A DNA stretch of 64,000 nt from an uncultured Actinomycetota bacterium (GCA_963843515.1 CAWJKH010000007.1:324017-388016); one strand, 5' to 3'. Shown: positions 13,108-64,000, numbered from the stretch's first letter. Made by a program: numbers and translations. Notes: generated from the letters alone by a model not told the origin.

Positions 13108-14145
13108 TCACAGCGACGCCGGTAGCGCGAGCTTGAGAAGTCTGGCCACGTTGCCGCCCAGAATCTTCGCCTTGTCCTCGTCGCTGATTTCCATGGCGTC
13201 GATGGCGCCGATGGTCTGGGGGTAGCTCCTCAGGCCGAAGGAGGGGTCGCCCAGCGGCATGTCGGCGGCGAAGATGATGCGGTCCGCTCCCCAGAAGCTG
13301 TAGGCCAGCATCAGCGCCGACGTGTTCCCGTGGATGGCCGTGTCGTTGTAGAACATCTTGAAGTAGTCCAGGGGAGCCTTCTTCAGCCGGCTCGCAGATC
13401 TCGCCGTAGTCGTGGTAGGCGCTTTCGAAGCAGACCGTAGTGCTGTACATCCGCTGCTCGAAAAACGACACCATGCCGCCGCCGTGGTGGGTGACGATCT
13501 TCAGGTTGGGGAAGTGTTCGAACAGGCCGCTGAAGACGATGCGGGTCATGGCCGCGGTGGTCTCGTACGGCCAGCCGAAGGTGCTGGCGATGGCGTACTT
13601 CGACTCGTCCTCGGTCGCATACTCCGGCGAAATCGTTGCCCCGCCACGGGATGGATGTAGATGGGCAGATCGTAGGCGCCATCTTCTCGAAGAGGGGCAG
13701 AAACTCCGGCGCATCGAGGGGCTTGCCGTTGATGTTGCTGTGAACGTAGATGCCTTTGAATCCCAGCTCCTTGATGGCCCGGTCGGTCTCGTCGAGAGCC
13801 GCCTGCGACGTCGTTCATGGGAAGGAGGGCGATGGCGGCCACGAAGCGATCCGGGTACTTGGCGATCAGTTCCGCCATCTCGTCGTTGGCCAGGCGGGCC
13901 AGCGCCGCTGCTCGGGCGGGGTCGGCGAAGTGCTCCAGCGGCGGTACCGGACCCACGGTCAGCACCTGGGCGATGGGGGCGAAGGCGTCCATCACCTTGA
14001 AGCGCGTCTCCATGTCGAAGAGGGGTGGGGTGATCCCGAGGATCTGTTTGTAGAAGCCCGGGAACTCGCGGCGCAGGGCTTCGGTGTATCGGGCCGGCGA
14101 GATGTGGGCGTAGCCGTCGATCTTGAGCGTGGGTGTGGCGGTCAT
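13108..14145 (-). pseudogene. amidohydrolase-2 (ACMSD-like decarboxylase/hydratase) family gene, at least 4 frame breaks
   Basis: AGGAGG then ATG at 14145 (MTATPTLKIDGYAHISP). Segments QAALDETDRAIKELGFKGIYVHSNINGKPLD, YDLPIYIHP, ISPEYATEDESKYAIASTFGWPYETT...VTHHGGGM and LKKAPLDYFKMFYNDTAIHGNT...AADMPLGDP lie in alternating frames. Breaks near 13388, 13640, 13678 and 13806. Confidence 0.75.
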
Positions 14146-43027: not shown

Positions 43028-43291
43028 CTACTCGTAGTGGGTCCCCATGCGAAGCACCTTCACTATCCGCTCCTCGTCCAGGATCTGGTAGACCAGACGA
43101 TGCTGGATGTTGATCCGGCGGGAATATGCTCCCGACAGATCGCCGACCAACTTCTCGAACGGGGGCGGGGTCAGATAGGGGTCTTGCTCTAGGATCTCGA
43201 GCAAAGCCTGGGCCTTGGCCTTGAGACCGGCCGCCGCTGGCTTCTTGGCGTCCTTCTGGGCGGCCTTCGTGTAGACGAGCCGCCAGCTCAC
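43028..43291 (-). CDS. yoeB: YoeB/Txe-family toxin
   Basis: 87 aa. LVGDLSGAYSRRINIQHRLVYQI...H(Y)E C-terminus. 4-nt overlap with the upstream antitoxin. Confidence 0.85.
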   Translation of the reverse strand: MSWRLVYTKAAQKDAKKPAAAGLKAKAQALLEILEQDPYLTPPPFEKLVGDLSGAYSRRINIQHRLVYQILDEERIVKVLRMGTHYE

Positions 43292-43530
43292 CAGTCAAGC
43301 TGGTCTTCGAGATCCTCGACTGGCGTTGCCATACCCTCGAGGATGGATTCCCGCATGCCCGGAATGGAGACGAGATGCAGGGTCTCCTGTACTGCCCGCC
43401 AGTCGTCCTCGCCGACGAGAACGGCGTTGCCCCTCTTGCCCGTGATCTGCACAGGCTCGTGCGAATCCGCCACGTCGTCGATCAGCTTGTAGAGCCGCTT
43501 TCGTGCTTCGGTCGCGGTAACCGTGGTCAT
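43288..43530 (-). CDS. yefM: Phd/YefM-family antitoxin
   Basis: MTTVTATEARKRLYKLIDDV...PVQITGKRGNAVLV from the Met at 43530. Confidence 0.85.
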   Translation of the reverse strand: MTTVTATEARKRLYKLIDDVADSHEPVQITGKRGNAVLVGEDDWRAVQETLHLVSIPGMRESILEGMATPVEDLEDQLDW

Positions 43531-43544
43531 CCCATACCTCCAGA

Positions 43545-43588
43545 CTATACGTACGGCAAAGCGTACGCTCATCGCAGGTGAATGTCAA
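43545..43588 (-). promoter_or_regulatory. candidate yefM-yoeB promoter with paired GTAC-core operator half-sites
   Basis: Minus strand: TTGACA (43588-43583), 17 nt, TACGCT (43565-43560). Palindromic GCGTACGC and CCGTACGT GTAC cores lie 12 bp apart over the -10 region. Confidence 0.45.
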
Positions 43589-43592
43589 GTTC

Positions 43593-43651
43593 GGGGCCTG
43601 AGAAGACAAAGTGCCCATTTGCAGGCCAAATAGGCCGACAGGTGGCGGGGC
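43593..43651 (+). repeat. mosaic repeat copy: H1 head plus core, no tail
   Basis: TCGGGGCCTGAGAAGACAAAGTGCCCATTTGCAGGCCAAATAGGCCGACAGGTGGCGGGG aligns to the heads at 59533 and 63549. Homology stops 1 nt from the ADH stop codon. Confidence 0.7.
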
Positions 43652-45374: not shown

Positions 45375-46358
45375 GTGATCTCACCTGACCCTGCGACTCC
45401 ATGTCTAGCTTCCTCTGGCTCTCACCGAGATCCAATAGTCACGTGGTGGGTCTTGAAGCTGGCCGGATGGCCAGTTCGCTATGTCGATGACACGTTCTAC
45501 GAGCGGAACTGGTATATCGGGGTGCCCGATGACCAGTGGTATCACTGCACTCCATGGGACAACGGAGGCGCCCTCGATGGCTTCAACCCGTCTGAGTGGC
45601 TTCCTCAGGCACGCGCGGAAATGCTGGGTGAAGGCCTTCTCGACCTTGTGACGAGCGCGTCGGGCTTCACCCAAGCGGTGAGCGACAACGGCGACCACAT
45701 CTACAAAGGCACCCTCACCGTAGCCACGCTCGCCGATCACAATCTCGGCCTCTCCGGCGCGCCCTTCGCTGGGGCCCCCATGAAAGGCCTCGCGGCCACG
45801 GCCCGCGACCCGCAGGCGAACGAAGAGTTCCGCACCGCCATAGGCGACATCCCGGTCACAATGGAGGTGACCGTTGGCGCGGACGGACTAGTCAAGGCGG
45901 CGACTCTCGCGTACACGACGGGTGGCGAGGAGATGCGCATCAAGCCCAACGGGAGGTTGGGCGCGGCGCCATATGAGAGCCACTTCATTTTCGGCCTTAC
46001 GTACAGTCAGTTCGGCTCGGCGCCGGCCATCGAACTACCGGATGCCGCCCAGACCGTGACTACCGACAAGCCGGCCGGATACCACGTGAAGTGGAGGGAC
46101 CCGGGGTCCCCACGTGACGATTCGGAAGATCGGTGCGCTCGCCGCTCTCCTGGCCCTCTTTGCGGCAGTAGGTCTCATGCCGGCCGGCTGCGCGGGGGAG
46201 GAGACCCCGCGGCGCCGCTACGTCGGGCGCGCCGCTTTCGGCAGGTCTACTGCCGGGCCATGGCGATCCGCAAGTCGGCTTCGGTATCCGGGATCAGCTC
46301 ACCGGACACATCCACCGTCACCCGTTTGATAGTCCCGGTGAAGTGGAATGCGCCCTGA
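45375..46358 (+). CDS. hypothetical protein, ends uncertain (possibly a 5'-truncated lipoprotein paralog)
   Basis: Long ORF with non-repetitive composition up to about 46110 (…TVTTDKPAGYHVKWRDPGSP). No signal peptide or recognised motif. The tail after 46114 overlaps another frame and the antisense of the sulfatase gene. Confidence 0.3.
   Translation: MISPDPATPCLASSGSHRDPIVTWWVLKLAGWPVRYVDDTFYERNWYIGVPDDQWYHCTPWDNGGALDGFNPSEWLPQARAEMLGEGLLDLVTSASGFTQAVSDNGDHIYKGTLTVATLADHNLGLSGAPFAGAPMKGLAATARDPQANEEFRTAIGDIPVTMEVTVGADGLVKAATLAYTTGGEEMRIKPNGRLGAAPYESHFIFGLTYSQFGSAPAIELPDAAQTVTTDKPAGYHVKWRDPGSPRDDSEDRCARRSPGPLCGSRSHAGRLRGGGDPAAPLRRARRFRQVYCRAMAIRKSASVSGISSPDTSTVTRLIVPVKWNAP
46114..46245 (+). 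pseudogene. orphan lipoprotein signal peptide (5' gene fragment)
   Basis: The GTG at 46114 encodes TIRKIGALAALLALFAAVGLMPAGCAGEE with a lipobox. The frame then runs straight into the antisense of the sulfatase 3' end. Confidence 0.4.
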
Positions 46359-50541: not shown

Positions 50542-51504
50542 ATGGGCGAGACACTGCAATTGGGACGGAGCGGCCTCTTGGTGCCGAGGATGGGGCTTGG
50601 TGCCATGATCTGGGGTCGGGCGCAGGGTATGGCGCGGTGGACACCCGCCCAACTTTCTTATGGCCCGACGGACAGCGCGGAGGACGAGGAGCGTGCGCTG
50701 GAGGTGAGCTTGGCGGCTGGAGTCAATCTCATCGACACCGCTGCCATGTACAGTCGCGGCACCTCCGAGCGCCGCGTCGGTGAGCTGATCCAGGGGAAGG
50801 ACGTCATCGTGGCGACGAAGTTCCCTCCGGCCATCCGGTCAGGAACCGAAGACTTCCCGGAGGCCCTTCGGGCAAGCCTTGCCCGCTTGCGGCGCCAGCA
50901 GATCGATCTTTATCAGCACCACTATCCGTCAAAGCGCGTCTCGATTCCACGGCTGATGGATTTCATGGCAGATGCTGTGGAAGCAGGGAAGATCAGGGCC
51001 GTTGGAGTCAGCAACTACTCGGCTGAGCAGATGCTGATCGCCCACAAGGCACTCGCCGAGCGCGGCATCTCTCTTGCTTCGAATCAGGTGCAATACTCGC
51101 TGCTGCATCGCGGTCCGGAGGCAGACGGAGTGCTCGATGCATGCCGGGAGCTAGGGATCACCCTCATCGCATACATGCCTTTGGCCAGCGGGGCTCTCTC
51201 TGGCAAATACGTGACCGGAACGCGCCCACGCGGGTTCTTCCGCCGGTTCATGCCCTATTTCAGGCGAGGGGGAAGAGAGGCGCTAGCACCCGTAATCGCG
51301 CTGCTCCAAGAGATCGGGCAGGGGTACGATAAGACCCCCGCCCAGGTTGCCTTGCGCTGGCTGCTCGAGGACAAGACCGTCCTTCCAATACCGGGGGCCA
51401 AGAATGGAAGGCAGGCAGCCGAGAACGCCGGTGCGTTGTCATTCAATCTGGTCGACGCAGAAAGAGAGGAACTGAGTCGAGCTACCCTCGCCTGGCGGCA
51501 CTAG
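50542..51504 (+). CDS. aldo/keto reductase
   Basis: MGETLQLGRSGLLVPRMGLGAM...IDTAAMYSRGTSE...DLYQHH...GVSNY. Confidence 0.85.
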   Translation: MGETLQLGRSGLLVPRMGLGAMIWGRAQGMARWTPAQLSYGPTDSAEDEERALEVSLAAGVNLIDTAAMYSRGTSERRVGELIQGKDVIVATKFPPAIRSGTEDFPEALRASLARLRRQQIDLYQHHYPSKRVSIPRLMDFMADAVEAGKIRAVGVSNYSAEQMLIAHKALAERGISLASNQVQYSLLHRGPEADGVLDACRELGITLIAYMPLASGALSGKYVTGTRPRGFFRRFMPYFRRGGREALAPVIALLQEIGQGYDKTPAQVALRWLLEDKTVLPIPGAKNGRQAAENAGALSFNLVDAEREELSRATLAWRH

Positions 51505-52331: not shown

Positions 52332-52477
52332 AGGTCGCGTTTCGCGCGAAGGTGGCTAGCCCGAAGGCGACATCTTCTTCAGCGCGTGTTCCGCGAACCG
52401 TGAGCGGATCTGCTCGCTCGCCAGCAGGCGCTCGGCGGGAGGCAGGGAGGCTATCGTCCGGATGACCGCGTTGGCGA

Positions 52478-52630
52478 ATGCCGGACCCCGGAGCGAATCG
52501 ATGGGGGACAGAATTCGGGGTTTTGCGTTCATCGGGCGGGTGGGCCAAGGCGGGATAAAGTAGCGACTTTGCAGGAATTGTGTTGCTGGCCGGACCCGGA
52601 ACTTAACCAGCCACCCACATTTCACGTTGG
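52478..52630 (+). repeat. mosaic repeat copy: degenerate core plus Y tail (Y2, with ~30-nt internal insertion)
   Basis: CCGGACCCCGGAGCGAATCGATGGGGGACAGAATTCGGGGTTTTGCGTTC...CCAGCCACCCACATTTCAC aligns to 61746-61856. It ends 3 nt inside the stop codon of the sensor gene. Confidence 0.75.
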
Positions 52631-55600
52631 GGGGTGCGCTGCTTGTCCCGGCCGCGGAGAAATGACTCCGTCGCCTCGTGGCGCGGATATCATCAACCCA
52701 GGAGCTTCTCCTGGGTCAAGGGTTTCTTCTTCGGTGCGGCGGCCTCGGCTTTGGCTTTTGAGCTGTAGCGTGAGGATCGCCAGGTCGTCTTGAAGCATCC
52801 CTTCCGAGAAGGCGAGCACCCGATCGAGAATGACATCGGGAAGACGCTCGGCTGGGATACGCTTGCGCTTGACGAGCGACTCGAGGCGCTTCTCCCCGAA
52901 CAGTTCGCCTTTGCGACGGGCCTCGATGACCCCGTCGGTGAAGAGAACGAGAAGGTCATCAGCCTGCAATTCGACCGCGGATGGCTTCCACGCGGCATCG
53001 GCATAGATGCCCAGCGGGGCGGAGCCGGCCCCGAGGTGCTCGATCTCCGCTGACGCCCTTCTCAGTAACATGTCCGGATGCCCCGCCGACGAATACCGCA
53101 GTTCGCCCGTTTGAGGGTCGAGGATGCCGAGGAAAAGGGTGACGTAGCCGGGCAGCTGCTTCTCGATGAGCAGCGTATTGGTGCGCTTGAGTACCTCGTG
53201 TGTCCGAAGCGTCTGATGGATGAAAGCATGGACGACGTCCTTGACGAGCGTCGCGGCACGGGCGGCCTCGATGCCGTGGCCGGCCACATCACCGATCAGA
53301 AGGGCGATCTTGCCCTCTTTGACCTGAAAGACATCGTAGAAGTCCCCGCCCACCCGGGCCGCCTCGGTCGCTGAGCGATAGAGATGTCCGAGACGGACCG
53401 GGCCCACCTCGGAGGGAATGTGGAGAAGGGCGCCCTGCAGGTTCTCGGCGATGTCGAGTTGCTGGCGGTAGAGACGTTCGTTCTCCTCCGCCAAGGTCCG
53501 GAGGCGCTCCTCCGCCTGCTTGCGCTCGGTGACATTCAGAGTGATACCGAAAGCGCTTCTAATCTTGCCTTGGGCGTCTCGAACAACTCGGTCCGTGATT
53601 GCCTGGAGATGACGAACAGACCCATCGGGCCGGACGATCCTATAGTCGACAGCACCCAGCCGTCCCTCGAGGCGCACCGACTCCACGTAATCCCGGTAGC
53701 TGTCCAGGTCGTCCGGATGGATCATGCCCCAAACATCGTCCATGAAGGTCGGGGTGCCAGGCTCCAAACCGTAGATCCGGTAATCCTCGTCCGATGCTTG
53801 GAACAGTCCCGTGTCCCAATCGACTGTCCAACTTCCGAGATGAGCGATCTCCTGGGACTTCTCGAGCACCGCAAGGTTTTCCTTGAGGACCTCATCGGCC
53901 TTCTTGCGCTCGGTGATGTCGCGGCCATAGGCGAAGAGGTACTCCTGCCCCTCGTAGACCACGTGGTTGACAAGGACCTCAGCCTGGTACTCGGTGCCGT
54001 CCTTGCGGCGGTGCGTGACCTCCAGGGTGAAGGACCTGCGCTTTCGGACCTCTTCCCAATGCTCGGCGTACTGTGCCCAGATCATGCCGGGGGTGAAATC
54101 CAGAGCCGTCATGTTCATCAGTTCGTCGCGGCTGTATCCAAGCGTCCGGCAGGTGGCGTCGTTTGCGTAGCGGACGCGGCCGTCGGGCGTGAACCAGGCG
54201 ACCATTTCCGGCGCCACATCGATCGAGGCGTGCGTCAGCCTCAGCGCCTCCTCGGCCCGTTTGCGCTCGGTGATGTCGGCGCACACCCCGACGATCCGCA
54301 CCGGGCGGCCCTGATCGTCATGGTGAAATCGCCCGGTCGACATGAACCACCCGGTGCTGCCGTCAACCCGGCGCATTCGTCCTTCCACATACATTTCGGT
54401 CTTTCCCTCAGCGGGCGTGTGAGCCTCAATAACCTTCTCGTGGTCCTCGGGCGACACATGCCGCAACGCGACCTCCATAGTCCATTCCGGCTGAAGCTCC
54501 TCGTAGCCGAAGATCTGGTCATGCCGCAAAGACCGGACGGCCTGGCCTGTGACCAAGTCGAGGTCCCATGTGCCGTACTCAGCGGCCTCCAGGGCAAGAC
54601 GCAGCCGTTCCTCGCTCTCACTTAGCGCCTCCTCGGCCTGCTTGCGCTCGGTGATGTCGCGGTAGACCACCTGGCTCGCGAGTCTGCCTCCGAACTCGAC
54701 CCTGGAGCCGCTCGCCTCCACGGCGACGGGGATGCCGTCCAGCCTGAGCAAGCGCATCTCTCGAGGCGGTGAGACCGCACCGGCAATCACCTCTTCCATT
54801 TGCTGACGGAATAACTCGCGGTCCTCGAGGTGAACGCGGTCGAGCGCGTTCTCGCCGATAAGCTCGCTTGGAGACCGGGCGCCGTAAAGCCTGGCGGCCG
54901 CCGCGTTCGCGAACACATGCGTGCCGTCTACGTCGACCAAGAGGGCGTCGGGGCTCACGTCCACAAGGTTCTTGTAGCGGTCCTCGCTCTCCTCCAAGGC
55001 GCGTTCTAACGGAAGGATTGAGGACGCCTCGCCGTGTTGGAGACTGAAGATGCCGCCAAGGAGGTAGAGGCCCGCCAGCCATTGGCCGGAGCGTACCAGC
55101 CACGATACGGGGCTGGCCGTGGGCGCTTGCGAAATAACGGCGATGGCGAAAGCCGCCCCCATCAACCCTAACCCGGAGAGCCACCACAAAAGGAACGGTG
55201 ACTTCAACCGGCGGTACGTCAGGGCGAAAATGAACGATGCAGCAATAAGGCCAGCCGCCGCGAGACCGAATGAGGCGTTTCTCCACGCAGTGAAACCTTG
55301 CCCGGGGATGAAGAAGGCCGGGATCAGCCCGGCGAGGGTCAGCGCTATGACGACTCCCATGAAGACCACCACTGCGGCATACGTCGCACCGATGGCCGGC
55401 ACCCGTGAAATCGTTCTTCTCCCGCGCCTTTCGAAGACAGTTTGGATCGCACTCCACAGAAACAAGAGGCTTCCGGCGCAGATAGCGATGTCAGCGACGG
55501 TTATGGCGTGGTTGGGGTCCGTAATCAACGGTCCCCCTATAAGGTACGCGAGGCCTACGAGGAGCGAACCGGCCCCCAGAAAGACGAGCGCCTGCATGCG

Positions 55601-56263
55601 AGAACGGCCGTAGCTGCGCGCCGCAAGGTAGCTGACGATGAGCATCGGGGCCACGATGAATAGGACGTTGAAGGTGGTGAATACTGACGATTCCTCGTGA
55701 ACCGCGCGGAGACCCAAGACAATGAACACGAAGACAGCGGCGATCAGCAGCGGGATAGGCAGCCAGATGAGGCTTGCAGGCCGCCAGAAAGACCAGGCCT
55801 GCTCGCTCTGCTTCGCTCCGTCTGACAAGGCGCTCCCGAGCAGGCCAACGTCAGGGTCGCGCTGTACGCCAAAGAACGTGAGCGAAACACGCGTCTTGCC
55901 TCCGACCATGCGGGACACACTCACGTGGTCGGCCAGGGACACCATGAGGGGAAGCCCGAGGCCCCGGCGTCGGCCCCCGTGGTCCTTGTAGAGGCCGGGC
56001 TGGAAGACCCCGTCGTTGGTTATCTCCACGATCAGACGATCGGGGAGGATCCAGGCGACGAGCTCCACCTCGCTGGCGGCGTGCTCTATGCCGTTGGCGG
56101 TAGCCTCGGAGGCGGCCACTTGTAGGTCGAAGATGCGGGACTCGGACAGCGAGCCACTCGCCCCCACGTCTCCGAGCCAAGCTCTCACCTCAGCCACGCG
56201 GGAGAGGTCGGCGGGGATGCTCAGCCGAAGAGAGGTTACCCCGTTCGGCGGGGTCGGGCTCAC
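52622..56263 (-). CDS. fusion protein: RsbW-like HATPase_c_2 kinase, multi-TM region, ~4 PAS domains and a PP2C/SpoIIE phosphatase
   Basis: 1213 aa, intact. N-terminus EATANGIEHA...RGLGLPLM. About 8-9 hydrophobic helices (residues ~150-410). Repeated PAS-type segments each end in YRDITERK, CADITERK, GRDITERK or TLNVTERK. C-terminus VGGDFYDV...LLIGDVAGHG...AGHP...TDGV. Confidence 0.85.
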   Translation of the reverse strand: MSPTPPNGVTSLRLSIPADLSRVAEVRAWLGDVGASGSLSESRIFDLQVAASEATANGIEHAASEVELVAWILPDRLIVEITNDGVFQPGLYKDHGGRRRGLGLPLMVSLADHVSVSRMVGGKTRVSLTFFGVQRDPDVGLLGSALSDGAKQSEQAWSFWRPASLIWLPIPLLIAAVFVFIVLGLRAVHEESSVFTTFNVLFIVAPMLIVSYLAARSYGRSRMQALVFLGAGSLLVGLAYLIGGPLITDPNHAITVADIAICAGSLLFLWSAIQTVFERRGRRTISRVPAIGATYAAVVVFMGVVIALTLAGLIPAFFIPGQGFTAWRNASFGLAAAGLIAASFIFALTYRRLKSPFLLWWLSGLGLMGAAFAIAVISQAPTASPVSWLVRSGQWLAGLYLLGGIFSLQHGEASSILPLERALEESEDRYKNLVDVSPDALLVDVDGTHVFANAAAARLYGARSPSELIGENALDRVHLEDRELFRQQMEEVIAGAVSPPREMRLLRLDGIPVAVEASGSRVEFGGRLASQVVYRDITERKQAEEALSESEERLRLALEAAEYGTWDLDLVTGQAVRSLRHDQIFGYEELQPEWTMEVALRHVSPEDHEKVIEAHTPAEGKTEMYVEGRMRRVDGSTGWFMSTGRFHHDDQGRPVRIVGVCADITERKRAEEALRLTHASIDVAPEMVAWFTPDGRVRYANDATCRTLGYSRDELMNMTALDFTPGMIWAQYAEHWEEVRKRRSFTLEVTHRRKDGTEYQAEVLVNHVVYEGQEYLFAYGRDITERKKADEVLKENLAVLEKSQEIAHLGSWTVDWDTGLFQASDEDYRIYGLEPGTPTFMDDVWGMIHPDDLDSYRDYVESVRLEGRLGAVDYRIVRPDGSVRHLQAITDRVVRDAQGKIRSAFGITLNVTERKQAEERLRTLAEENERLYRQQLDIAENLQGALLHIPSEVGPVRLGHLYRSATEAARVGGDFYDVFQVKEGKIALLIGDVAGHGIEAARAATLVKDVVHAFIHQTLRTHEVLKRTNTLLIEKQLPGYVTLFLGILDPQTGELRYSSAGHPDMLLRRASAEIEHLGAGSAPLGIYADAAWKPSAVELQADDLLVLFTDGVIEARRKGELFGEKRLESLVKRKRIPAERLPDVILDRVLAFSEGMLQDDLAILTLQLKSQSRGRRTEEETLDPGEAPGLMISAPRGDGVISPRPGQAAHPPT

Positions 56264-56610
56264 AGGGCAGTATCCCGAAGAGCCTCGGAAGCGTCCTCCG
56301 TGCTGGCAAAGATCCGGAAGGAGGGTCGACTGGTGAGACCCACGATCTCGAAAATTCGGAGGAGGTTCCCGTTGGCTCCGATGACGCCTAGCCAGCCCCG
56401 CGCCTGCATGTCTTTATCCAGCGTGAGAAAGACGCCCGCGCCCCCGCTATCGAGATAGCGCACAGCAGTCAGGTCAAAGAGGAGACGCCCGCTGTCTAGG
56501 GCAAGGGCCTCGCGAGCCGCCGCTTCAAGCGCGGGCGCAGTGAAGTGATCGACGTCCCCGACGATTCGGAACAAAGGAATGCCGGAAAGAGACGCTTGGA
56601 AGACTTCCAT
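56260..56610 (-). CDS. STAS-domain anti-sigma-factor antagonist (RsbV/SpoIIAA-like)
   Basis: 116 aa. LFDLTAVRYLDSGGAGVF carries the phosphorylatable Ser context. The stop overlaps the GTG of the downstream fusion gene (GTGA). Confidence 0.85.
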   Translation of the reverse strand: MEVFQASLSGIPLFRIVGDVDHFTAPALEAAAREALALDSGRLLFDLTAVRYLDSGGAGVFLTLDKDMQARGWLGVIGANGNLLRIFEIVGLTSRPSFRIFASTEDASEALRDTAL

Positions 56611-56766
56611 CTGCTCCTAGCAATAACCGGCCATCGCGCAGTAGTGGCAGCGCATTCTCCGTTGCCGGACACATGGCGTCAAGTGAGCAGCGTGAAAGGT
56701 ATCCAGGGCCCCGGCCCTGCAGGGAGTTCCCGATATGCTGTTTCCGAAACCCCCCGAGGAAATGTC

Positions 56767-56940
56767 CCCGGTTCAAGCCGGGGTATGCCATTTATGGACT
56801 TTGTAAATATGGCCTATGCTGGGCTTTCCTGGGTGGCGGGACCCGGACTTGTATGGTCTGCCGACATTCCGTTCCGACTGGTGACGGCCTAGGAAGCACA
56901 AAACCCTGCACGCGGGTGACTTTTCGCCGGCTGCCGCCTC
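56767..56940 (+). repeat. mosaic repeat copy: H2 head plus core plus X tail
   Basis: TCCCCGGTTCAAGCCGGGG hairpin, ACTTTGTAAATATGGCCTATGCTGGGCTTTCCTGG, GTGGCGGGACCC, then the X tail GGACTTGTATGGTCTGCCGACATTCCGTTCCGACTGGTGACGGCC... Confidence 0.8.
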
Positions 56941-57055
56941 CGTTGTCCTTGCCCTCGGAACGCCGAGAAGCCCCGCCCCGGCAGTTGGGAGCTATTGGCG
57001 ACGTGGTCAAATGCACTGGCGCCCGCCCCGCTGTCTCCGCCGTCCGTTCTTCCGC

Positions 57056-58045
57056 TCAGCTGAGTCGGCGGCGCACCCACCAGAAGCAGAGCCCAGCCAG
57101 GAGAAGAGCGAGGGCAAGGAAGACGGCTGTCTCGATTCCTTGGAAGACCCAGAAACGGTCGGCGGGTTGAAGGGTGACGACGGCGTGATACGTAGCGGCG
57201 AGTTTTGCGGCGACCGCTTCAGGGTTCCCCGCGGGCGCTCCGTCCCTCACGGCGCTCCACAAAGCTTCCGCGGAAGCTCGATTTCCAGCCTGGTCGACAA
57301 TGTCGACCGAGTAGACCCAGGCATTCGGTATGTGGGCGAAGGGTTTCAGATGCGCGTCCCCGGTGCTAGCCCTCATGAGGCCCAGCCCAACGAGGTCGGA
57401 CGTGAGTGACAAGCTCGTCTTCGTGGGGATCATGAAGTAGGGACGCACCCAATACGTCACCGCGATACGGACGGCGGCGAAGACCGCGAGGGTAACACCC
57501 ATGGCTGGCAGCGTGCGCCGGAAGAGCAGACCGGCCGTGACGCCCACCATGAAGCCGAAGGGTGCGTAGCCCAGCGGCACGAGCCACCCGGTGCCGAAGA
57601 GTAGGAGATCGAATCGGTTGGGAGTGGCTGGGCCCGTGAGGCTGAGGCCATAGATGGGGTTCGACCACCAGGTGACGATGAGACTGAGCAGACCCGTGAC
57701 GGCAACGCTGGCGAAGCCGACAACCAGGAGCTTCACAGCCAACCACCGCGCGCGGGTGACGCTCTGGGTCCACACCAGGCGAAACGTGCCCGTTTCCAGC
57801 TCGCGCGCGATGAGAGGCGCTCCCCAGAACACGCCGGCAAGGATGGGAGCCCCGAGGACAATCACCGTGAAGGCTCCTCGCAGAAAGCGAAGCGGGCCTT
57901 CGAATAGTGCTCCCCTGGCGGACGCCTCAGAGAGAAGATCGACCAAGTACGGCCGAGTGACCGCGGCAATCACGGCAACCACCACCAAGGCCCCAAGCGC
58001 CACGAACGCCTGAGAGCGGAACTGCCGCCAGGAGAGTCTGATCAT
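57056..58045 (-). CDS. ABC-2-type transporter permease
   Basis: The Met at 58045 (ATGA overlap with the ATPase stop). 6 hydrophobic helices. Confidence 0.75.
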   Translation of the reverse strand: MIRLSWRQFRSQAFVALGALVVVAVIAAVTRPYLVDLLSEASARGALFEGPLRFLRGAFTVIVLGAPILAGVFWGAPLIARELETGTFRLVWTQSVTRARWLAVKLLVVGFASVAVTGLLSLIVTWWSNPIYGLSLTGPATPNRFDLLLFGTGWLVPLGYAPFGFMVGVTAGLLFRRTLPAMGVTLAVFAAVRIAVTYWVRPYFMIPTKTSLSLTSDLVGLGLMRASTGDAHLKPFAHIPNAWVYSVDIVDQAGNRASAEALWSAVRDGAPAGNPEAVAAKLAATYHAVVTLQPADRFWVFQGIETAVFLALALLLAGLCFWWVRRRLS

Positions 58046-58938
58046 TTGACGACCGCCAATCTGGACGTTGAGTCGGACTCCACTTCGTTCGCCGCTTTCA
58101 TGTAGGCGAGCACCAGATCCTCGAGACTGACTTCTTCCGCGGTCCAAGCCGGGTCGTAGATCGGGTCTTCCGTGCGTACGATGAGCGTGCTCTGCCGCGC
58201 GGCGTGGCTGGCCTCGATGACCTCGAGACCGCCCGGCATGGTGCCGGGATCACGGCGTGGCCCAGTCAGCCGACGATGCGAGGCCAGTAGGGCATCGACC
58301 TCCCCCGTCAGCCGCACTTGCGAGGAGGCCAGCACAACCAGGTAGTCGCAGGTCCGCTCTAGGTCGGATAGCAGGTGGGAGGAGAACACGATACTCAGTC
58401 GTTGGTCCGCGACGACCTCCATCAGGGACTGCAGGAACTCGCGACGGGCGAGCGGGTCCAGACTGGCCACCGGCTCGTCTAGGATCAGCAGTTCCGGGCG
58501 CTTGGCCAATGCCAGGGTGAGAGCCAGCTGAGCCCGTTGGCCACCTGACAGCCGCCCCGCCCGCTGGGTGAGATCGAGACCGAGCTTGCCGACCCGGTGC
58601 CGGGCCGCCTCGTCATCCCAATGGGGGTTGAGCCATGCACCTAACCGGAGATGATCGCCGACGGACAGTCCCGGGTAGAGCGGCGTCTCCTGACCGACGA
58701 AGCCTATCCGCTCCAGTTGTCTGGATCCAGCCGCCGGCTCAGCGCCGAGCACTCTTATCGCGCCCGTTGTGGGAGCAAGCAGGCCGACGGCAAGCTGGAG
58801 CAACGTCGTCTTGCCGGCCCCGTTCGGACCGACCAGGCCGACGACCCGCCCGGCAGGCACGTCGAGCGTGCAGTCGGTCAGGGCCCAGAGCCGCCCAAAG
58901 CGTTTGCCCAACCCACGGGCCTCGATAACCGCGCTCAC
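58042..58938 (-). CDS. ABC transporter ATP-binding protein
   Basis: Walker A GPNGAGKTT, signature LSGGQRAQ, Walker B LLILDEP. Confidence 0.9.
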   Translation of the reverse strand: MSAVIEARGLGKRFGRLWALTDCTLDVPAGRVVGLVGPNGAGKTTLLQLAVGLLAPTTGAIRVLGAEPAAGSRQLERIGFVGQETPLYPGLSVGDHLRLGAWLNPHWDDEAARHRVGKLGLDLTQRAGRLSGGQRAQLALTLALAKRPELLILDEPVASLDPLARREFLQSLMEVVADQRLSIVFSSHLLSDLERTCDYLVVLASSQVRLTGEVDALLASHRRLTGPRRDPGTMPGGLEVIEASHAARQSTLIVRTEDPIYDPAWTAEEVSLEDLVLAYMKAANEVESDSTSRLAVVK

Positions 58939-59327
58939 GCTACGTTCTCCTGAGAGACGGACCGAAAGGCGTCCCGAAAGAGCGCCTCGATGCTCTCATC
59001 GTCGAGTCCGGCGCCACGCGCTTTGGTCAGCCAGCGGTTGAGGTCTTCTCGAAGGGGCCCTTGTGCCGCGAGGGAAGAGCCGCTGAGACTCGCTATCACG
59101 AACGTTCCGACGCCCGGCCGGACTCCCACAAGTCCCTGGTGCTCAAGCTCTCGGTAAGCCTTCAGCACAGTGTTTGGGTTCAACGCAAGGCGGCCGACGA
59201 CATCCTTGACCGTCGGGAGTTGGTCACCCTTTCGCAGCAGGCCCAGCCGGAGAGCGTGGCGCACCTGATGGACGAGCTGCAGATAGGGCGAGACGCCTGA
59301 ACGGCTGTCCAAATGGAACTCGATCAT
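58935..59327 (-). CDS. GntR-family (YtrA-like) transcriptional regulator
   Basis: 130 aa. LPTVKDVVGRLALNPNTVLKAYRELEHQGLV winged HTH. First gene of the GntR-ABC operon. Confidence 0.85.
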   Translation of the reverse strand: MIEFHLDSRSGVSPYLQLVHQVRHALRLGLLRKGDQLPTVKDVVGRLALNPNTVLKAYRELEHQGLVGVRPGVGTFVIASLSGSSLAAQGPLREDLNRWLTKARGAGLDDESIEALFRDAFRSVSQENVA

Positions 59328-59342
59328 GTTCGCCTCGATTCA

Positions 59343-59386
59343 CCTAGCGACTACAGCTATACTAACTAGCATACTATATAGCTAGG
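59343..59386. promoter_or_regulatory. AT-rich inverted-repeat operator candidate upstream of the GntR gene
   Basis: AGCTATA (59355-59361) pairs with TATAGCT (59377-59383), and CCTAGC (59343) pairs with GCTAGG (59381). CTAG-rich. Confidence 0.45.
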
Positions 59387-59520
59387 TTTACGCTACGTCA
59401 AGCTGCCAAGGAGCATTCGGAAAGATGGCCGAAGGCTGGACGGCAGGCCCCGCCTGCTGGCGCTGCAGCCCAAGCTGGCAGGCTCCTGGGCGCGGCGTGG
59501 GCTTTCCCGATTGGGAAAAG

Positions 59521-59660
59521 TCCCCGGTTAAAATCGAGGTCTGAGGGGCCAAAATGTGCCTATTGGCAGGGCAAAAGCGGCCGTTAGGTGGCGGGACCCC
59601 GGTTCGTACTAATAACAGACGGAATTGCGGAATATGCGGGCGTTTGAGAGGTATCCGGGC
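59521..59660 (+). repeat. mosaic repeat copy: H1 head plus core plus unique Z tail
   Basis: TCCCCGGTT...GGGGCCAAAATGTGCCTATTGGCAGGGCAAAAGCGGCCGTTAGGTGGCGGGACCCC, then GGTTCGTACTAATAACAGACGG, which is seen nowhere else in the window. Confidence 0.7.
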
Positions 59661-59969
59661 GCCGCTTTGGAATGACTTTCCTCGAACCAGTCACGCACAT
59701 CTTCACGCTGCCTGGTCTCTTGCACACAAATCAGCACACTACCCAGCCCCGCCATGTGGCCAGGCAAGAACTCGCCAAGAAGCTCTCCTCCAACCCCCCA
59801 GGCGTCTGATATCGCAGTTTAGACCGAGCGATAGACTTGAGTCCATGAAACGCGCACTTGGCGCGGTGTGGCGAGGGAAGGAGAGGATCATGAAGCTCGC
59901 CATCTCTGGAGCAACGGGGGGCACGCGATCCGGACAGTCGAGGGCCTGTAACTCACTGATCACGAAAGG

Positions 59970-61361
59970 ATGAGTCCCGTGAACATCACCGTCCTCAACG
60001 GCAGTCCCAAAGGCGAACTCAGTGTCACGATGCAGTCGGTGGCCTATCTGGCCAAACACTACCCCGAGCACACGTTCGACGTCCTGCACATCGCGCAACG
60101 CGCGAAGCGCCTGGAGAACAACCGGGAAGAGTTCGACCAGGTCATCGACAAGGTGCGGGCCGCGGACGCGGTCATCTGGGGCTTCCCCCTCTACATCCTG
60201 CTCGTCCACGGGAACTACAAGCGTTTCATCGAGCTGGTCTTCGAACGCGACGTGCAGGACGCCTTCGCCGGCAAATACACCGCCGCGCTGTCCACCTCCA
60301 TCCACTACTTCGACCACACCGCCCACAACTACATCCACGGCATCTGTGACGACCTGGGGATGCGCTTCGTGGACTCCTTCGCCGCCGACATGTACGATCT
60401 GCTCGGGGAGGAAGGCCGCGCCCAACTGCTCGGGTTCGGCCAACAGTTCCTGGACGCCGTGCAGACCCAGGCGCCCACCCAGCGCCGCTTCCCGCCCCTT
60501 TCCCGCCGGGAGTTCGCGTACCAGCCGGGACTCCCCTCCCACCCCGTCTCCTCTGGCGGCAAGAAGGTCGTGATCCTGCACGACGAGCAATCGTCCGACA
60601 GCAACCTGGCAAAGATGGTGGCCCGCTGCCGCGCCGCGGTCGACGGCGACGTGACCGTGGTCAACATCCGCGACCTCGACATCAAAGCCGGCTGCCAGGG
60701 GTGCCTGGAGTGCGCCGCGAAGTACCGCTGCTTCTATACAGGCAAAGACGCGTTCATAGACTTCTACGGGTCCACAGTCATGACCGCCGACGTGCTCGTC
60801 TACGCCGGGACCATGGTCGACCGGTACCTCTCGGCGCGCTGGAAGACGTTCTTCGACCGCACGTTCTTCAACACCCACACGCCGGTCCTGGTCGGCAAAC
60901 AGGTGGCGCTGGTCGTTTCAGGCCCGCTCGGACAGACACCGAACCTGATGGAGATCTTCGACGGATACTTCCAATACCAGGGCGCCAGTGTCGTCGGCGT
61001 CGTAAGCGACGAGACCGGGGACTCAGCCGAACTCGACCGCCTGCTCGACGGGTTGATGACGCGCGCCCTGGCGAACGCCCAAGCCGGCTACGTCCACCCG
61101 ATGACTTTCCTCGGCGCCGCGGGGATGAAGGTCTTCCGCGACGACATGTACGGGCGTCTGCGCGTCGTCTTCGCGGCCGACCACAACGCGTACCGCCGTT
61201 CGGGCCTCTACAAGACGTTCCCGCAGCGGCAACTGGGGACGCGGATGCTCAACACGTTCGGGGCGCCGATCATCAACCTGCCCCCGATCCGCAAGAAGTT
61301 CGACCCGATGATCAAGCCTCAGATGGTGTCTTCACACAAGAAGGCGGTGGCCAAGTATTAG
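59970..61361 (+). CDS. tandem flavodoxin-like-fold NAD(P)H-dependent oxidoreductase
   Basis: 463 aa, intact. Two NADPH-FMN-reductase-like halves (ITVLNGSPKG...VIWGFPLY and KVVILHDE...CQGCLEC...VLVYAGTMVDRY). Confidence 0.7.
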   Translation: MSPVNITVLNGSPKGELSVTMQSVAYLAKHYPEHTFDVLHIAQRAKRLENNREEFDQVIDKVRAADAVIWGFPLYILLVHGNYKRFIELVFERDVQDAFAGKYTAALSTSIHYFDHTAHNYIHGICDDLGMRFVDSFAADMYDLLGEEGRAQLLGFGQQFLDAVQTQAPTQRRFPPLSRREFAYQPGLPSHPVSSGGKKVVILHDEQSSDSNLAKMVARCRAAVDGDVTVVNIRDLDIKAGCQGCLECAAKYRCFYTGKDAFIDFYGSTVMTADVLVYAGTMVDRYLSARWKTFFDRTFFNTHTPVLVGKQVALVVSGPLGQTPNLMEIFDGYFQYQGASVVGVVSDETGDSAELDRLLDGLMTRALANAQAGYVHPMTFLGAAGMKVFRDDMYGRLRVVFAADHNAYRRSGLYKTFPQRQLGTRMLNTFGAPIINLPPIRKKFDPMIKPQMVSSHKKAVAKY

Positions 61362-61704
61362 GCGCCGCGCGACTCATCGCGGCGGCGGAGCATGACTGCA
61401 ACAGGCGTCTTCATGATCCCTCCCTTCTCGTTCCCTCTCGCAGGTCTGTGCCGCCTCAACGCCCGCGCTTCAGACCACACCTCGAGACAGCCGGCGCGCG
61501 TTTCAAGAGTCTTTCTCTCTCGGGAATTGCTGCCAGTCGGAAGACTCCGCCGTCCTGCGTCAAGCAGAGAGACACTCGTTCGAAGAGGGGGTGAGAGGGC
61601 CAACCTCCACGGAGCACCCGTTAGAACGCTGATCTAGACAGGCTCTACTGCGCGCGCCTACCGATTGGCGGGCGTTCTCGTTCAAGTCGAGCGTGCCGTC
61701 TATT

Positions 61705-61860
61705 CACTTTATAAACATATGGTATATGCAGGGCTTTCCTGTGGCGGGACCCCGGAGCGAACGGATGGGGGACAGAATTCGGGGCTTTGCGTTCCTTGGG
61801 CGGGTGAGCTGATCTGGGGGCCAGACCCAGAGTTGAACCAGCCACCCGCATTTCACACTA
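61705..61860 (+). repeat. mosaic repeat copy: H2 head plus core plus Y tail (Y1)
   Basis: ACTTTATAAACATATGGTATATGCAGGGCTTTCCTGTGGCGGGACCCC, then GGAGCGAACGGATGGGGGACAGAATTCGGGGCTTTGCGTTCC...CCAGCCACCCGCATTTCAC. Confidence 0.8.
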
Positions 61861-61947
61861 TCTGGTCTGTCGCTCAGCGCGAGTCTCGCCGGCCGCGACC
61901 CTCATAGCCAACCGGGCGACCCCACCACTTGGGCTGGGATTCACTCC

Positions 61948-62235
61948 TCATCCGACTGCCGCGAGATGCTCCACCGCCTGTGTTGGACGGCACCGGGCCA
62001 GATCATATGCCGACTGGAGATTGATCCAGAACTCGGGAGTGGTGTTGAGCGCTTGAGCAAGGAGCCAGGCGGTCTCCGGCGTAATTCCGCGCTTACCGCG
62101 AACCAGCTCGTTGATGCGCTGCACCGGCACGCCCAGGTGGGCCGCGAGGGCCACCTGAGAAACGCCCAAAGGCGCTAGGAACTCCTGGCTCAACACGACC
62201 CCCGGATGGGTCGGAATCCGGTTCTCCGGAATCAT
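61948..62235 (-). CDS. higA: HigA-family antitoxin (XRE HTH)
   Basis: 95 aa. PTHPGVVLSQEFLAPLGVSQVALAAHLGVPVQRINELVRGKRGITPETA. Confidence 0.85.
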   Translation of the reverse strand: MIPENRIPTHPGVVLSQEFLAPLGVSQVALAAHLGVPVQRINELVRGKRGITPETAWLLAQALNTTPEFWINLQSAYDLARCRPTQAVEHLAAVG

Positions 62236-62248
62236 GGCTTCGCCTCCT

Positions 62249-62541
62249 TCAAACGTGATAATCCATTAGCCGAACGTCGTGGGCATTGTTGCCTTCCCAA
62301 CGGAACACCACTCGCCACTGGTCGTTCACTCGGATAGAGTGACGGCCCTCGAGGTCACCCTTCAATGCTTCGAGTCTATTGCGGGGGGAGACCTGAGGTC
62401 CAGTACCGTCGAGGCCGCGTTGAGCATGTCCAGCTTGACCAAAGCCGGGGCGACGATGTCGTGCGGGAACCGGCGTGCCCGGCCGGTGGGCCGGTTGTGG
62501 TACAGATCCTCTGCGGCGCGGTCGCCGAACGAGACAATCAT
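62249..62541 (-). pseudogene. higB: HigB-type (plasmid maintenance killer, RelE-fold) toxin, single frame break next to a C6/G6 run
   Basis: MIVSFGDRAAEDLYHNRPTGRARRFPHDI...DLRSPP, then NRLEALKGDLEGRHSIRVNDQWRVVFRWEGNNAHDVRLMDYH. Break at ~62381-62388 beside GCGGGGGGAG. Confidence 0.8.
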
Positions 62542-62679
62542 TGTCCCTCCTGCCAATCACCCAGCAAGAATATCGCTATCACGGTTACCGTGCAAGTATT
62601 TATAGATGGGAGACGCGGGAAAAGACGAGCAACTCGGAAGCGAGTAGCCCCGGATCGAGTCGGTATCTGGGACGCACAC

Positions 62680-62780
62680 CCCTGTATGGGAAGAAAGTGG
62701 CGGGACCCGGACTTGTATGGTCTGCCGACATTCCCTTCCGACTGGTGATGGCCTAGAAAGCACAAAAACCCCTGCAACCG
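62680..62780 (+). repeat. mosaic repeat copy: short H3 head plus core plus X tail
   Basis: CCCTGTATGGGAAGAAAGTGGCGGGACCCGGACTTGTATGGTCTGCCGACATTCCCTTCCGACTGGTGATGGCCTAGAAAGCACAAAAACC. Confidence 0.8.
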
Positions 62781-62882
62781 GCCTGAATCTGGTTCAAATA
62801 CAGTGGCGCCCACGTTCACAAGCAAGACAACTCTTTCCCGGGCAGTGGATACGCAGCACTCGGTCGCTCTCCAACGCTCGAG

Positions 62883-63179
62883 CTACCCTCGCCCGCGCCA
62901 GTAGAAGGGGCGTTTGCGCTGGGGTGCTATGGCGAGGATTGTAATGAAGTCGTCGCGCACCTCGTAGAAGAGCGTGTAGGGAAAGCGCGCCAAGACAAGC
63001 TTGCGAACATTGGGCGCGACTTCGGGGGCGGCTTCGGGATGCTGTCGAATCCGCGCGAAACCGGCCTCCACCTCACCGATGAACACCGAGCCGAGGCCGG
63101 GGCTCTCGCGGTCGTAGTAGTCGACGGTGTCGTTGAACTCCCGCAGCGCGTCGTCGTGAAGACGCAGTTGCCGAGTCAC
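62883..63179 (-). CDS. ParE/RelE-family toxin
   Basis: 98 aa. HDDALREFNDTVDYY...FPYTLFYEVRDDFITILAIAPQRKRP. Confidence 0.8.
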   Translation of the reverse strand: MTRQLRLHDDALREFNDTVDYYDRESPGLGSVFIGEVEAGFARIRQHPEAAPEVAPNVRKLVLARFPYTLFYEVRDDFITILAIAPQRKRPFYWRGRG

Positions 63180-63400
63180 TTCAGGCGGGCCCGAGCCTGT
63201 GCGATCGCCTCGTCCGCCGGAGTTGTGTTGGCGTTGCCGGCGTCGATCTCGGCGCTGCGCCGCATCGCTTCCTCAATCCAGAGCTGCTCGACTTCTGCTT
63301 CCGAAAGAGATTCCAGGCTATTGAGCAGCTCGTGGGCCATGGAGGCACGATCAGCGGCGTTGAGCCGCAACGCTTCGCGCAGGAGTTCGTCGACGGTCAT
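63176..63400 (-). CDS. putative addiction-module antitoxin component (small helical, TIGR02574-like)
   Basis: 74 aa. LSEAEVEQLWIEEAMRRSAEIDAG pattern. 4-nt overlap with the toxin gene. Confidence 0.7.
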   Translation of the reverse strand: MTVDELLREALRLNAADRASMAHELLNSLESLSEAEVEQLWIEEAMRRSAEIDAGNANTTPADEAIAQARARLK

Positions 63401-63548
63401 CTCAATACCTCACAAGTCCGAGCGGAACCAAGATAATTCTACGCTCCCGCGGGTCCAATGCCCACGCACCAAAGGTGGAGATAGGCGAAGTCCGCCTCAC
63501 CTTACTTCCGGCGCGAGCTTTCTGGCTTGGCAGATATCCCCGGTGCAA

Positions 63549-63700
63549 ATCGGGGTGAGAGGGCAAGACAATGCCTATTTGCAGGGACAAGTGGCGGGAC
63601 CCGGACTTGTATGGTCTGCCGACATTCCCTTCCGACTGGTGACGGCCCAGAATGCACAAAAACGCTGCATCCGGGTGACTATTCGCCGGCCGCTGCCACG
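63549..63700 (+). repeat. mosaic repeat copy: H1 head plus core plus X tail
   Basis: ATCGGGGTGAGAGGGCAAGACAATGCCTATTTGCAGGGACAAGTGGCGGGACCCGGACTTGTATGGTCTGCCGACATTCCCTTCCGACTGGTGACGGCC...GGGTGACTATTCGCCGGC. Confidence 0.8.
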
Positions 63701-64000
63701 TTGCGCTGGGCCGTGCCCAACCCGACTACGGCGCGCGTGGACGCCCGGCGACCGCCGAGGACATACCCGATGATGAGCGAGCCGATGACGAAGATGATCA
63801 GCGCCAAGAATCCTCTCGAGCCGATCAGGCTGATGATGTTGGAGATGTTCAGCCCCAACCCGGTCACCAGAAGAACCAGCAGGGAGACGCCAGACAGCTT
63901 GTTCATCAGGGGGGCCCATCGCTGAGCGCTCTCCTCGGAGTGCGACCGCCATAGCAGCCCGATCACGATGGGAGCCAGCATCGTCACGATCAGGGATTTC
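63679..64000 (-). CDS. bile acid:sodium symporter (BASS)-like membrane protein fragment; N-terminus off-window, C-terminus apparently cut short
   Basis: The frame is open to the window edge. LLVLLVTGLGLNISNIISLIG...VVGLGTAQRNVAAAGE* ends right after the conserved QRN motif, and the last codons and stop lie inside the X repeat. Confidence 0.55.
   Translation of the reverse strand, partial: KSLIVTMLAPIVIGLLWRSHSEESAQRWAPLMNKLSGVSLLVLLVTGLGLNISNIISLIGSRGFLALIIFVIGSLIIGYVLGGRRASTRAVVGLGTAQRNVAAAGE

Follow-up and report, generated by a model that had tools for sequence, protein, structure and literature searches.

A 64,000-nucleotide (nt) stretch of DNA from an uncultured Actinomycetota bacterium (GCA_963843515.1 CAWJKH010000007.1:324017-388016), hereafter the window, contains a series of small gene blocks separated by copies of a mosaic repeat. 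The initial annotation had described this repeat as a short fixed core between interchangeable left modules (heads) and right modules (tails), in seven co-oriented copies that bracket discrete gene units. Pfam searches agreed with the gene content proposed for these units, identifying a SpoIIE/PAS sensor, a STAS protein, a GntR regulator with an ABC transporter, an FMN_red protein, HigBA, ParE with its antitoxin and a Phd/YoeB pair. The units bounded by the cores are islets of 0.9-3.5 kb with one to four cargo genes, plus a STAS-sensor islet of ~4.3 kb whose distal junction is decayed. Their cargo belongs to four classes (toxin-antitoxin (TA) pairs, regulators, transporters and redox enzymes), and Pfam and NCBIfam detected no integrase, relaxase or transfer genes in the core-bounded units.

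The exact 12-mer core, GTGGCGGGACCC, occurs five times in the window, starting at positions 56833, 59588, 61741, 62697 and 63591 and always on the plus strand, in keeping with the single orientation first reported. The count expected from dinucleotide shuffles is 0.03, and none of 100 shuffles reached five. Five of the seven proposed copies thus have the full core, whereas the other two are only partial. The copy at 52.5 kb has a degenerate core (AATGCCGGACCC) with a Y tail and no head, and the tail-less copy at 43.6 kb consists of an H1 head and eight of the 12 core bases that run into the stop codon of the ADH gene. When all junctions were compared with the window by sensitive BLAST, positions 1-43500 showed no copies of the core, heads or tails. 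A near-core with a single mismatch at 46092-46102 was discarded as a chance match, lying without head or tail and probably in coding sequence. The classification of the flanking modules was largely reproduced: a repeat finder grouped the X tails at 56831, 62695 and 63589 (92-96% identity over 75 nt) and the Y tails at 52480 and 61744 (89% identity over 66 nt), and BLAST grouped the H1 heads (43584-43649, 59493-59581 and 63509-63595) and the H2 heads (56771-56844 and 61680-61752), with 73-86% identity. Two modules had to be reclassified: H3, proposed as a separate kind of head, can be aligned to H1 and H2 and is a diverged variant of them, and the Z tail, thought to be unique, recurs past the window end (L131:12418, where adding 62671 gives the window coordinate) and in related metagenome-assembled genomes (MAGs).

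Looking up the antitoxin protein of the window led us to an 18-kb metagenome contig (ENA ERZ25039554, contig_89291) that overlaps window positions 60398-64000 with 99.8% identity and runs 14.5 kb further. Locus L001 corresponds to window positions 60398-64000 plus the first 9.4 kb beyond. Another four exact cores, oriented like those of the window, lie in the extension at 67054, 68376, 71570 and 75078 in window-equivalent coordinates, so that the window and extension together hold nine exact cores in a single orientation, with 894-3508 nt between neighbours. A new tail type, W, appears there too, along with several decayed junctions. The cargo genes of the extension, present in both orientations, encode TetR, rhodanese, SBF, nitroreductase, globin, CsbD and SHOCT proteins; there is also another ParE pair, which is inverted, and a disrupted IS110 insertion sequence (IS).

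The core is the reverse complement of the final 12 nt of tRNA-Phe(GAA), the window carrying the array on its minus strand. On the tRNA-sense strand it reads GGGTCCCGCCAC, a sequence that we assign to the T stem (3' strand), the acceptor stem and the discriminator base, plus a single base beyond. A query made of the core plus the head hairpin, run against a GTDB set with one genome per species, returned nine loci from six MAGs titled uncultured Actinomycetota or Actinomycetes, and in each MAG the matches were confined to one region. In four related uncultured Actinomycetota assemblies (MAG loci L002, L005 and L007, and the metagenome contig L073), an intact tRNA-Phe gene is followed downstream by co-oriented copies of the core, flanked by the same tails and heads. 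GGGTCCCGCCAC ends the tRNA-Phe(GAA) gene called by ARAGORN in these four loci and in L133; a Glu-Val-Asp-Phe cluster ends with this gene in L002, L007, L073 and L133, and only Asp-Phe lies inside L005. ARAGORN called no tRNA in the window or in L001, the displaced tRNA-Phe fragments being too short for it to call. Rfam gave no match to a curated covariance model in the window at the gathering threshold and none in L001 at E ≤ 1. The spacer between tRNA-Asp and tRNA-Phe is of 45-80 nt in L002, L005 and L073 and of ~750 nt in L007 (2931-3665) and L133 (11768-12522), and in L133 it holds an open reading frame (ORF) matching the ArsR-type helix-turn-helix (HTH) families PF01022/PF12840.

The tails (X, Y, Z and others) are diverged 3' halves of tRNA-Phe with adjoining arm sequence. 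Their identity to the 3' end of the tRNA is graded, spanning 12 nt in Y, Z and W, 19 nt in X (from the T loop) and 21-23 nt in V; fragments in L004 and L009 have 33 nt identical to the tRNA 3' end and, toward the anticodon loop, match 42 of the final 45 nt. Compared with the tRNA, the Y tail reads as a diverged 3' half (…GAATTCTGTCCCCCATCCGTTCGCTCCG followed by GGGTCCCGCCAC), and the Y arms contain a second, older and decayed 3' half ~70 nt upstream (window 61819-61856 and 52588-52625). We had also considered the tails as starts of small ORFs (MSAD...GPA, MNAKPRILSPIDSLRGPA), and rejected this because their origin as diverged tRNA-Phe 3' halves explains the conservation of the frame; a 59-amino acid (aa) ORF at 52354-52530 had no family match. 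In L006 (5168-5271) and L004 (3579-3689), a conserved 91-nt V unit (…GCTGTACTTGGTTCAAGTCC) without cargo stands between two cores ~100 nt apart, and could be an empty cassette or a minimal unit of two attachment (att) sites.

The heads share a layout of core, 4-20 nt, CCTGCAAATAGGCAC, ~15 nt and a hairpin, CCCCGRYTTGAACCGGGG, to which some copies add a second hairpin and GAAGCTCACGC; H2 has an insertion in this layout, and H3 is a diverged version of it. The repeat finder also identified a hairpin-containing block common to the heads. The same head directly follows the genuine tRNA-Phe gene in L002, L005, L007 and L073. The head hairpin is an inverted copy of the T arm of tRNA-Phe, 50-70 nt from the core, and in four of the nine heads the copy is exact over 15-16 nt (tRNA positions 44-59, opposite strand). 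These four heads belong to the cores at 56833, 67054, 71570 and 75078, with the matches at 56763-56777 and at the equivalents of 66998, 71513 and 75022, respectively. The longest opposite-strand match to the tRNA in the other five is of 6-10 nt, within the range of shuffled heads (maximum 10). The inverted T-arm hairpin may act as a terminator or as an accessory binding site, or may be a relic; as a candidate for the true crossover it was rejected, because the homology of the HigBA unit between genomes stops at the core and not at the hairpin. By inspection, the second hairpin of some heads shows apparent compensatory changes.

Scanning metagenome sequences for a core followed by CCTGCAAA within 25 nt, we found this motif 3-25 nt after tRNA-Phe in at least 120 loci. 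These included 125 exact cores, most with the tRNA T arm directly upstream and 21 with a full-length gene by a strict test. Nearly all of the listed loci are tRNA-Phe genes of other soil lineages, with the T loop TTCGAATCC, followed downstream by a hairpin, short direct repeats such as GTCAACAGnnnGTCAACAG, and the 3' end of a convergent gene. Pfam identified this gene as a tyrosine integrase (Phage_integrase + SAM_3) in six of 10 downstream ORFs tested, and many other metagenome tRNA-Phe loci retain just the final ~30 codons of the integrase. The arrangement is complete in locus L107, where a 6.2-kb element lies between tRNA-Phe and a distal tRNA repeat of 45 nt that starts in the anticodon loop. 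With CCTGCAAA located between tRNA-Phe and a convergent tyrosine integrase in many soil metagenome contigs, the heads are the counterpart of the integrase-proximal (P') arm found in tRNA-Phe-specific integrative elements, a widespread family, but have no integrase. Across the soil lineages of metagenome loci L011-L130, fossil P' arms appear near-fixed downstream of tRNA-Phe, many of them with the CCTGCAAA box, the hairpin and the last ~30 integrase codons.

The blocks between cores behave as cassettes across species-level relatives, which are roughly 84-96% identical in shared DNA. The HigBA unit (H3 head, HigBA and Y tail) is 94.9% identical in L002, where it has other neighbours on both sides, and the homology ends at window position 61741, the outer base of the core. 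The GntR-ABC unit is 92.6% identical in L007, being the first after tRNA-Phe in that locus and preceded by at least eight units in this genome. The nitroreductase, also found in L008, comes first after the tRNA in L002 and second, after GntR-ABC, in the contiguous L007+L006; here it is nearer than GntR-ABC to the tRNA-proximal end of the array, an order swapped with respect to L007+L006. Likewise, the order of the sulfatase and Phd/YoeB is swapped relative to L010, and deletions alone cannot account for such swaps. The nitroreductase keeps its Z tail in all four genomes. Variation of the bracketed blocks among relatives, proposed at the outset as a check on the cassette idea, was thus found for HigBA, GntR-ABC, nitroreductase and Phd/YoeB, with one break exactly at a core edge.

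Table 1. Junction components and cargo genes of the array in the window, by position.
Feature	Position	Strand	Remarks
Phd/YefM antitoxin + YoeB/ParE-fold toxin	43028..43572	-	
H1 head + partial core GTGGCGGG	43584..43650	-	Partial core at 43643-43650 (8/12 core bases); abuts ADH stop codon; most distal recognisable junction
Decayed junction, Y-type tail, no head	52477..52645	-	Degenerate core AATGCCGGACCC at 52477-52488; older tRNA-like fragment at 52588-52625
STAS protein + HATPase_c_2/PAS/SpoIIE membrane sensor phosphatase	52622..56610	-	Pfam
H2 head	56713..56832	-	Hairpin 56766-56783; plus strand 56763-56777 equals tRNA-Phe positions 45-59 exactly (inverted T-arm copy)
att core	56833..56844	-	
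X-type tail, long form	56845..57024	-	~180 nt
GntR regulator, ABC ATPase, ABC-2 permease	57056..59327	-	First cassette after tRNA-Phe in MAG locus L007
H1 head	59468..59587	-	Hairpin ~59522-59539 and second hairpin
att core	59588..59599	-	
Z-type tail	59600..59726	-	
FMN_red/flavodoxin-like protein	59970..61361	+	Opposite to array orientation
H2 head	61640..61740	-	
att core	61741..61752	-	HigBA-cassette homology to MAG locus L002 stops exactly at 61741
Y-type tail	61753..61905	-	Diverged tRNA-Phe 3' half beside core; older decayed tRNA 3' half at 61819-61856
HigB-like toxin + HigA HTH antitoxin	61948..62560	-	Pfam; only C-terminal half of toxin matches family
H3 head, diverged variant	62600..62696	-	Accompanies HigBA cassette in L002
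att core	62697..62708	-	
X-type tail	62709..62781	-	
Unstab_antitox antitoxin + ParE toxin	62883..63400	-	Pfam
H1 head (P'-arm-like)	63481..63590	-	CCTGCAAATAGGCA motif; hairpin 63538-63555
att core	63591..63602	-	Reverse complement of final 12 nt of tRNA-Phe; with X tail, tRNA identity is 19 nt (63591-63609)
X-type tail (P-arm-like)	63603..63712	-	Overlaps final codons of SBF/BASS gene

The region is, very probably, the distal part of a tRNA-Phe-anchored genomic island formed by repeated site-specific integration, composed of integrase-less islets that resemble cis-mobilisable elements (CIMEs). An incoming circular element would carry an attP site made of tail, tRNA-Phe 3'-end core and head, and its recombination with the 3' end of tRNA-Phe, or with one of the att copies that the array already has, would insert the element and generate an extra copy of the tRNA 3' end. 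Each junction would then consist, in order, of the upstream element's P arm (the tail), 12-19 nt of identity to the tRNA 3' end (the core) and the downstream element's P' arm (the head). With the exchange confined to the core, any tail type might come to neighbour any head type. A tyrosine integrase encoded elsewhere presumably moved the islets, although we infer both its identity and the recombination chemistry. The elements are best described as integrase-less and mobilisable in cis or in trans (CIME-like), or as remnants of such elements. The site-specific recombination at a fixed core put forward in the initial annotation therefore holds for the joining at the core and for the cassette behaviour, but not for a new integron-like box, the core being a tRNA-type att site. 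Less usual for such an island are the very small size of the units, the absence of an integrase from all of them, the retention of both arms around almost every unit, and the perfect conservation of the 12-nt core beside strongly diverged tRNA-like sequence. These characteristics suggest that the att sites are, or recently were, in use, and the cassettes may still be mobile.

Several observations weigh against this interpretation. Just 12 nt are common to all junctions, which is short for a complete core site of a tyrosine recombinase; the extension contig stops 3.4 kb past the last core without any tRNA, and the tRNA-Phe gene of this genome is not reached; and excision, of which circular junctions or empty sites would be direct evidence, is presumed. 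Pfam and NCBIfam scans of ~60 array ORFs, covering ~36 kb of this array and ~70 kb of related arrays, identified no integrase, and tblastn with six verified tRNA-Phe-linked integrases against the window and L001-L010 gave a best E value of 0.13 and no remnant. Moreover, the linkage of heads to cargo is not strict, with nitroreductase heads that differ between genomes. These differences, together with the decayed junctions and stacked cargo-less tails, indicate that deletion and recombination within arms also occur; the array is thus shaped as well by deletion, gene conversion or homologous recombination.

The absence of a recombinase from the window, already remarked on in the initial annotation, was borne out by tblastn and by the ORF scans, which found no tyrosine or serine recombinase in the ~60 array ORFs or in 20 ORFs of window positions 1-43500, outside the array. 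NCBIfam found no recombinase among the unassigned array ORFs, and the scans brought up only IS transposases (IS110, Mutator and IS3-type HTH). The tRNA of L002, L005 and L007 has no recombinase beside it; upstream of the tRNA cluster are housekeeping or unrelated genes, for an alanine racemase (L002) and for a SpoIIE/GAF protein (L007). Neither phage nor plasmid collections gave a BLAST match to a whole junction (L001:9660-9900). A C-terminal tyrosine-recombinase fragment is found at the far end of L073 (L073:7-429), as well as in L133 (9336-10354) and L134 (10001-10324). This fragment (…LHLLRHTAAKLRRDAGESVEEVSRFLDHSSLAVTTTYIRRLEG…) has 765 database relatives, the best 120 of which, with 74-94% identity, are all short ORFs (74-130 aa) and come from numerous soil contigs of several phyla. 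L133 is from the same sample and from another, more distant organism, with only ~71-76% identity to the window's nearest relative, and its P' arm carries CCTGCTAAAG instead of CCTGCAAA, with TCAGCCAAC direct repeats. Its recombinase gene, two genes from tRNA-Phe, is split into overlapping ORFs of 240 and 117 aa. This points to an interruption of the recombinase that recurs at one position, by a frameshift or a split. Tyrosine integrases therefore target tRNA-Phe in the wider group, and none is tied to the cassettes with X, Y, Z or W tails and H heads.

A possible, though doubtful, alternative is that the array is entirely fossil, comprising relics of full-size integrative elements that lost their integrases and most of their other genes by deletion, with nothing mobile any more and with the differences between genomes arising from deletion plus recombination or gene conversion among arms of ~100-200 nt. 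This would agree with the decayed junctions and cargo-less stacked tails (52477-52645, L001:3582-3652 and L001:6148-6239), the decayed Z-core-H1 junction inside the nitroreductase cassette, whose head-to-cargo linkage is broken, the accumulation of IS elements in the arrays and the many metagenome tRNA-Phe loci where only the end of the integrase gene remains. However, the core is exact in all nine copies of this array and in over 25 copies of relatives, beside tail sequence that is tRNA-like but over 40% diverged. In addition, both arms are intact around almost every cassette, no integrase remnant was found, and the swaps in order are unattainable by deletion alone. Between tails of different types the shared sequence is just 12-19 nt, below the length generally needed for efficient RecA-dependent exchange.

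We regard as unlikely, and more so than a fossil array, that tRNA-Phe serves as a platform on which integrase-less two-arm elements, with one to four cargo genes and often TA pairs, are captured, excised and re-ordered by a recombinase acting in trans, as an integron-like shuffling system made of classical tRNA att sites. The recognition modules would in that case be the conserved CCTGCAAAT box, the inverted copy of the tRNA T arm and the several tail types. Still more improbable, in our opinion, is a dedicated integron-like capture system in which a host recombinase uses tRNA-Phe as acceptor for integrase-less cassettes whose arms are the recognition modules. Its appeal lies in the cassette-sized islets (0.9-3.5 kb), which are TA-rich, co-oriented and integrase-less in six MAGs, in arms conserved over cassettes and species, and in the varying position of cassettes between genomes. 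On the contrary, the genes beside the tRNA in L002, L005 and L007 include no recombinase (alanine racemase and SpoIIE/GAF genes lying upstream in L002 and L007), the cargo lies in either direction and comes with regulators of its own, and the head motif belongs elsewhere to ordinary integrase-bearing elements. The GTTRRRY/attC structure is also lacking: RYYYAAC/GTTRRRY sequences, looked for by eye near the cores on both strands, were absent, in line with the earlier failure to recognise attC R/L boxes. A true integron was rejected: there is no IntI or attI, no tyrosine recombinase lies in the window, in the extension or beside the tRNA of relatives, and GGGTCCCGCCAC, as read by eye, has no GTT triplet. 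Finally, we give practically no credence to a miniature inverted-repeat transposable element (MITE) or repetitive extragenic palindromic (REP)-like interspersed repeat, or to a shared promoter-leader for minus-strand operons, which the initial annotation held equally open, because the copies, albeit intergenic, of ~250-350 nt and with hairpins, form, in the window and the MAG loci examined, one co-oriented array in a single region per genome from the tRNA-Phe gene onward, have neither terminal inverted repeats nor an Rfam match in the window (gathering threshold) or L001 (E ≤ 1), and place their heads before genes on either strand and after the tRNA gene itself.

The comparison also disclosed other rearrangements in and around the array. 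The IS110-family transposase of the extension is split (L131:9234-10762 and 13353-13748), with the DEDD part (253 aa) on one strand and a Transposase_20 fragment 2.6 kb off on the other, and is adjoined by the inverted second copy of the ParE/antitoxin cassette. The IS end abuts an X-type tail (…AGACCATACAG, then TAGCC) ~10 nt from the block of tRNA identity, which suggests an insertion into, or an inversion at, att-arm sequence. Beside a decayed W-type junction, L001:3689-3952 duplicates, with 95% identity, a 265-nt internal fragment of the aldo/keto reductase gene of the window (50832-51096). The HigB-like ORF (window 62249-62560, 103 aa) matches the HigB family only in residues 57-102, and the gene call on the overlapping contig gives it only 59 aa; the toxin may be N-terminally disrupted. 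Four copies of a ~32-48-nt repeat, spaced ~360-380 nt apart, occur at window positions 53501-54668, and we read them as ordinary domain repeats that mark the limits of the tandem PAS domains in the sensor, unrelated to the junction array.

Tandem accretion of att sites at tRNA genes is already known, and the array is a clear but unsurprising example of it, with islets that are unusually small and integrase-less. The actinomycete elements pSE211 and pMEA100, which target tRNA-Phe, are autonomous, plasmid-like and larger than 10 kb, and have a tyrosine integrase and att identity from the anticodon loop; att fragments of this type are seen in L004, L009 and L107. Classical integrons are, to our knowledge, rare in Actinomycetota. 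As in integron arrays, co-oriented sites separate here small, TA-rich accessory units, and the contexts are exchangeable at a fixed crossover. Unlike integrons, the array has no IntI or attI and no R''/R' GTTRRRY boxes, its core is the end of a tRNA, and its cargo is often multigene, with its own regulators and in either orientation.

The closest parallels are other islands accreted at small-RNA genes or at the 3' end of a target gene. The ssrA genomic islands of Dehalococcoides contain more than 12 direct repeats with a non-matching motif upstream of each, and some have been proposed to be cis-mobilisable (PMC3146451). They share with our array and those of its relatives, in which the tRNA gene is seen, a single small-RNA gene that heads a hypervariable region with about a dozen co-oriented 3'-end repeats, a conserved motif unmatched in the RNA gene that lies upstream of each repeat and marks the insertion point, and some islands without integration genes (PMC3146451). 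They differ in having a 20-bp ssrA repeat and phage-sized islands, 16 of them with a serine-recombinase (CcrB-like) module (PMC3146451), whereas the target here is tRNA-Phe, the islets are of 0.9-3.5 kb with no integrase in those examined, and the related autonomous elements carry tyrosine integrases. CIMEs, described along with site-specific accretion (Pavlovic 2004 and Bellanger 2011, reviewed in PMC5704250), keep attL and attR and have lost integration and transfer genes (PMC5704250). As with our islets, tandem arrays of CIMEs build up where a target gene ends (3'), and a characteristic of CIMEs is that they are mobilisable by the integrase of a neighbour (PMC5704250). They have been described in Firmicutes, as single decayed partners of integrative and conjugative (ICE) or integrative and mobilisable (IME) elements (PMC5704250), in contrast to the at least 9-12 units with several arm types found here, with no functional partner found. 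In tRNA islands of Prochlorococcus seeded by tycheposons, partial tRNAs and degenerate elements accumulate, and the proposed model involves, as we propose here, integration at the tRNA-proximal end, older material pushed distally and hypervariability between relatives (bioRxiv 10.1101/2020.12.28.424599). Tycheposons, however, carry large tyrosine recombinases and replication modules, and the partial tRNAs are scattered (bioRxiv 10.1101/2020.12.28.424599), whereas this array has regularly spaced att repeats, small integrase-less units and well-preserved arms.

Recognition of the core as a tRNA end makes the mosaic repeat annotatable, with displaced 3' ends of tRNA-Phe marking the boundaries of islands and cassettes. 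Such tRNA fragments are overlooked by ARAGORN and Rfam scans, neither of which had a match in the window. The array also documents a hypervariable accessory-gene region in an uncultured soil lineage of actinobacteria, with reshuffling between species at the level of cassettes. If the islets prove to be actively mobilised in trans, tRNA-linked arrays would supply Actinomycetota with TA modules and niche genes from an integron-like reservoir.

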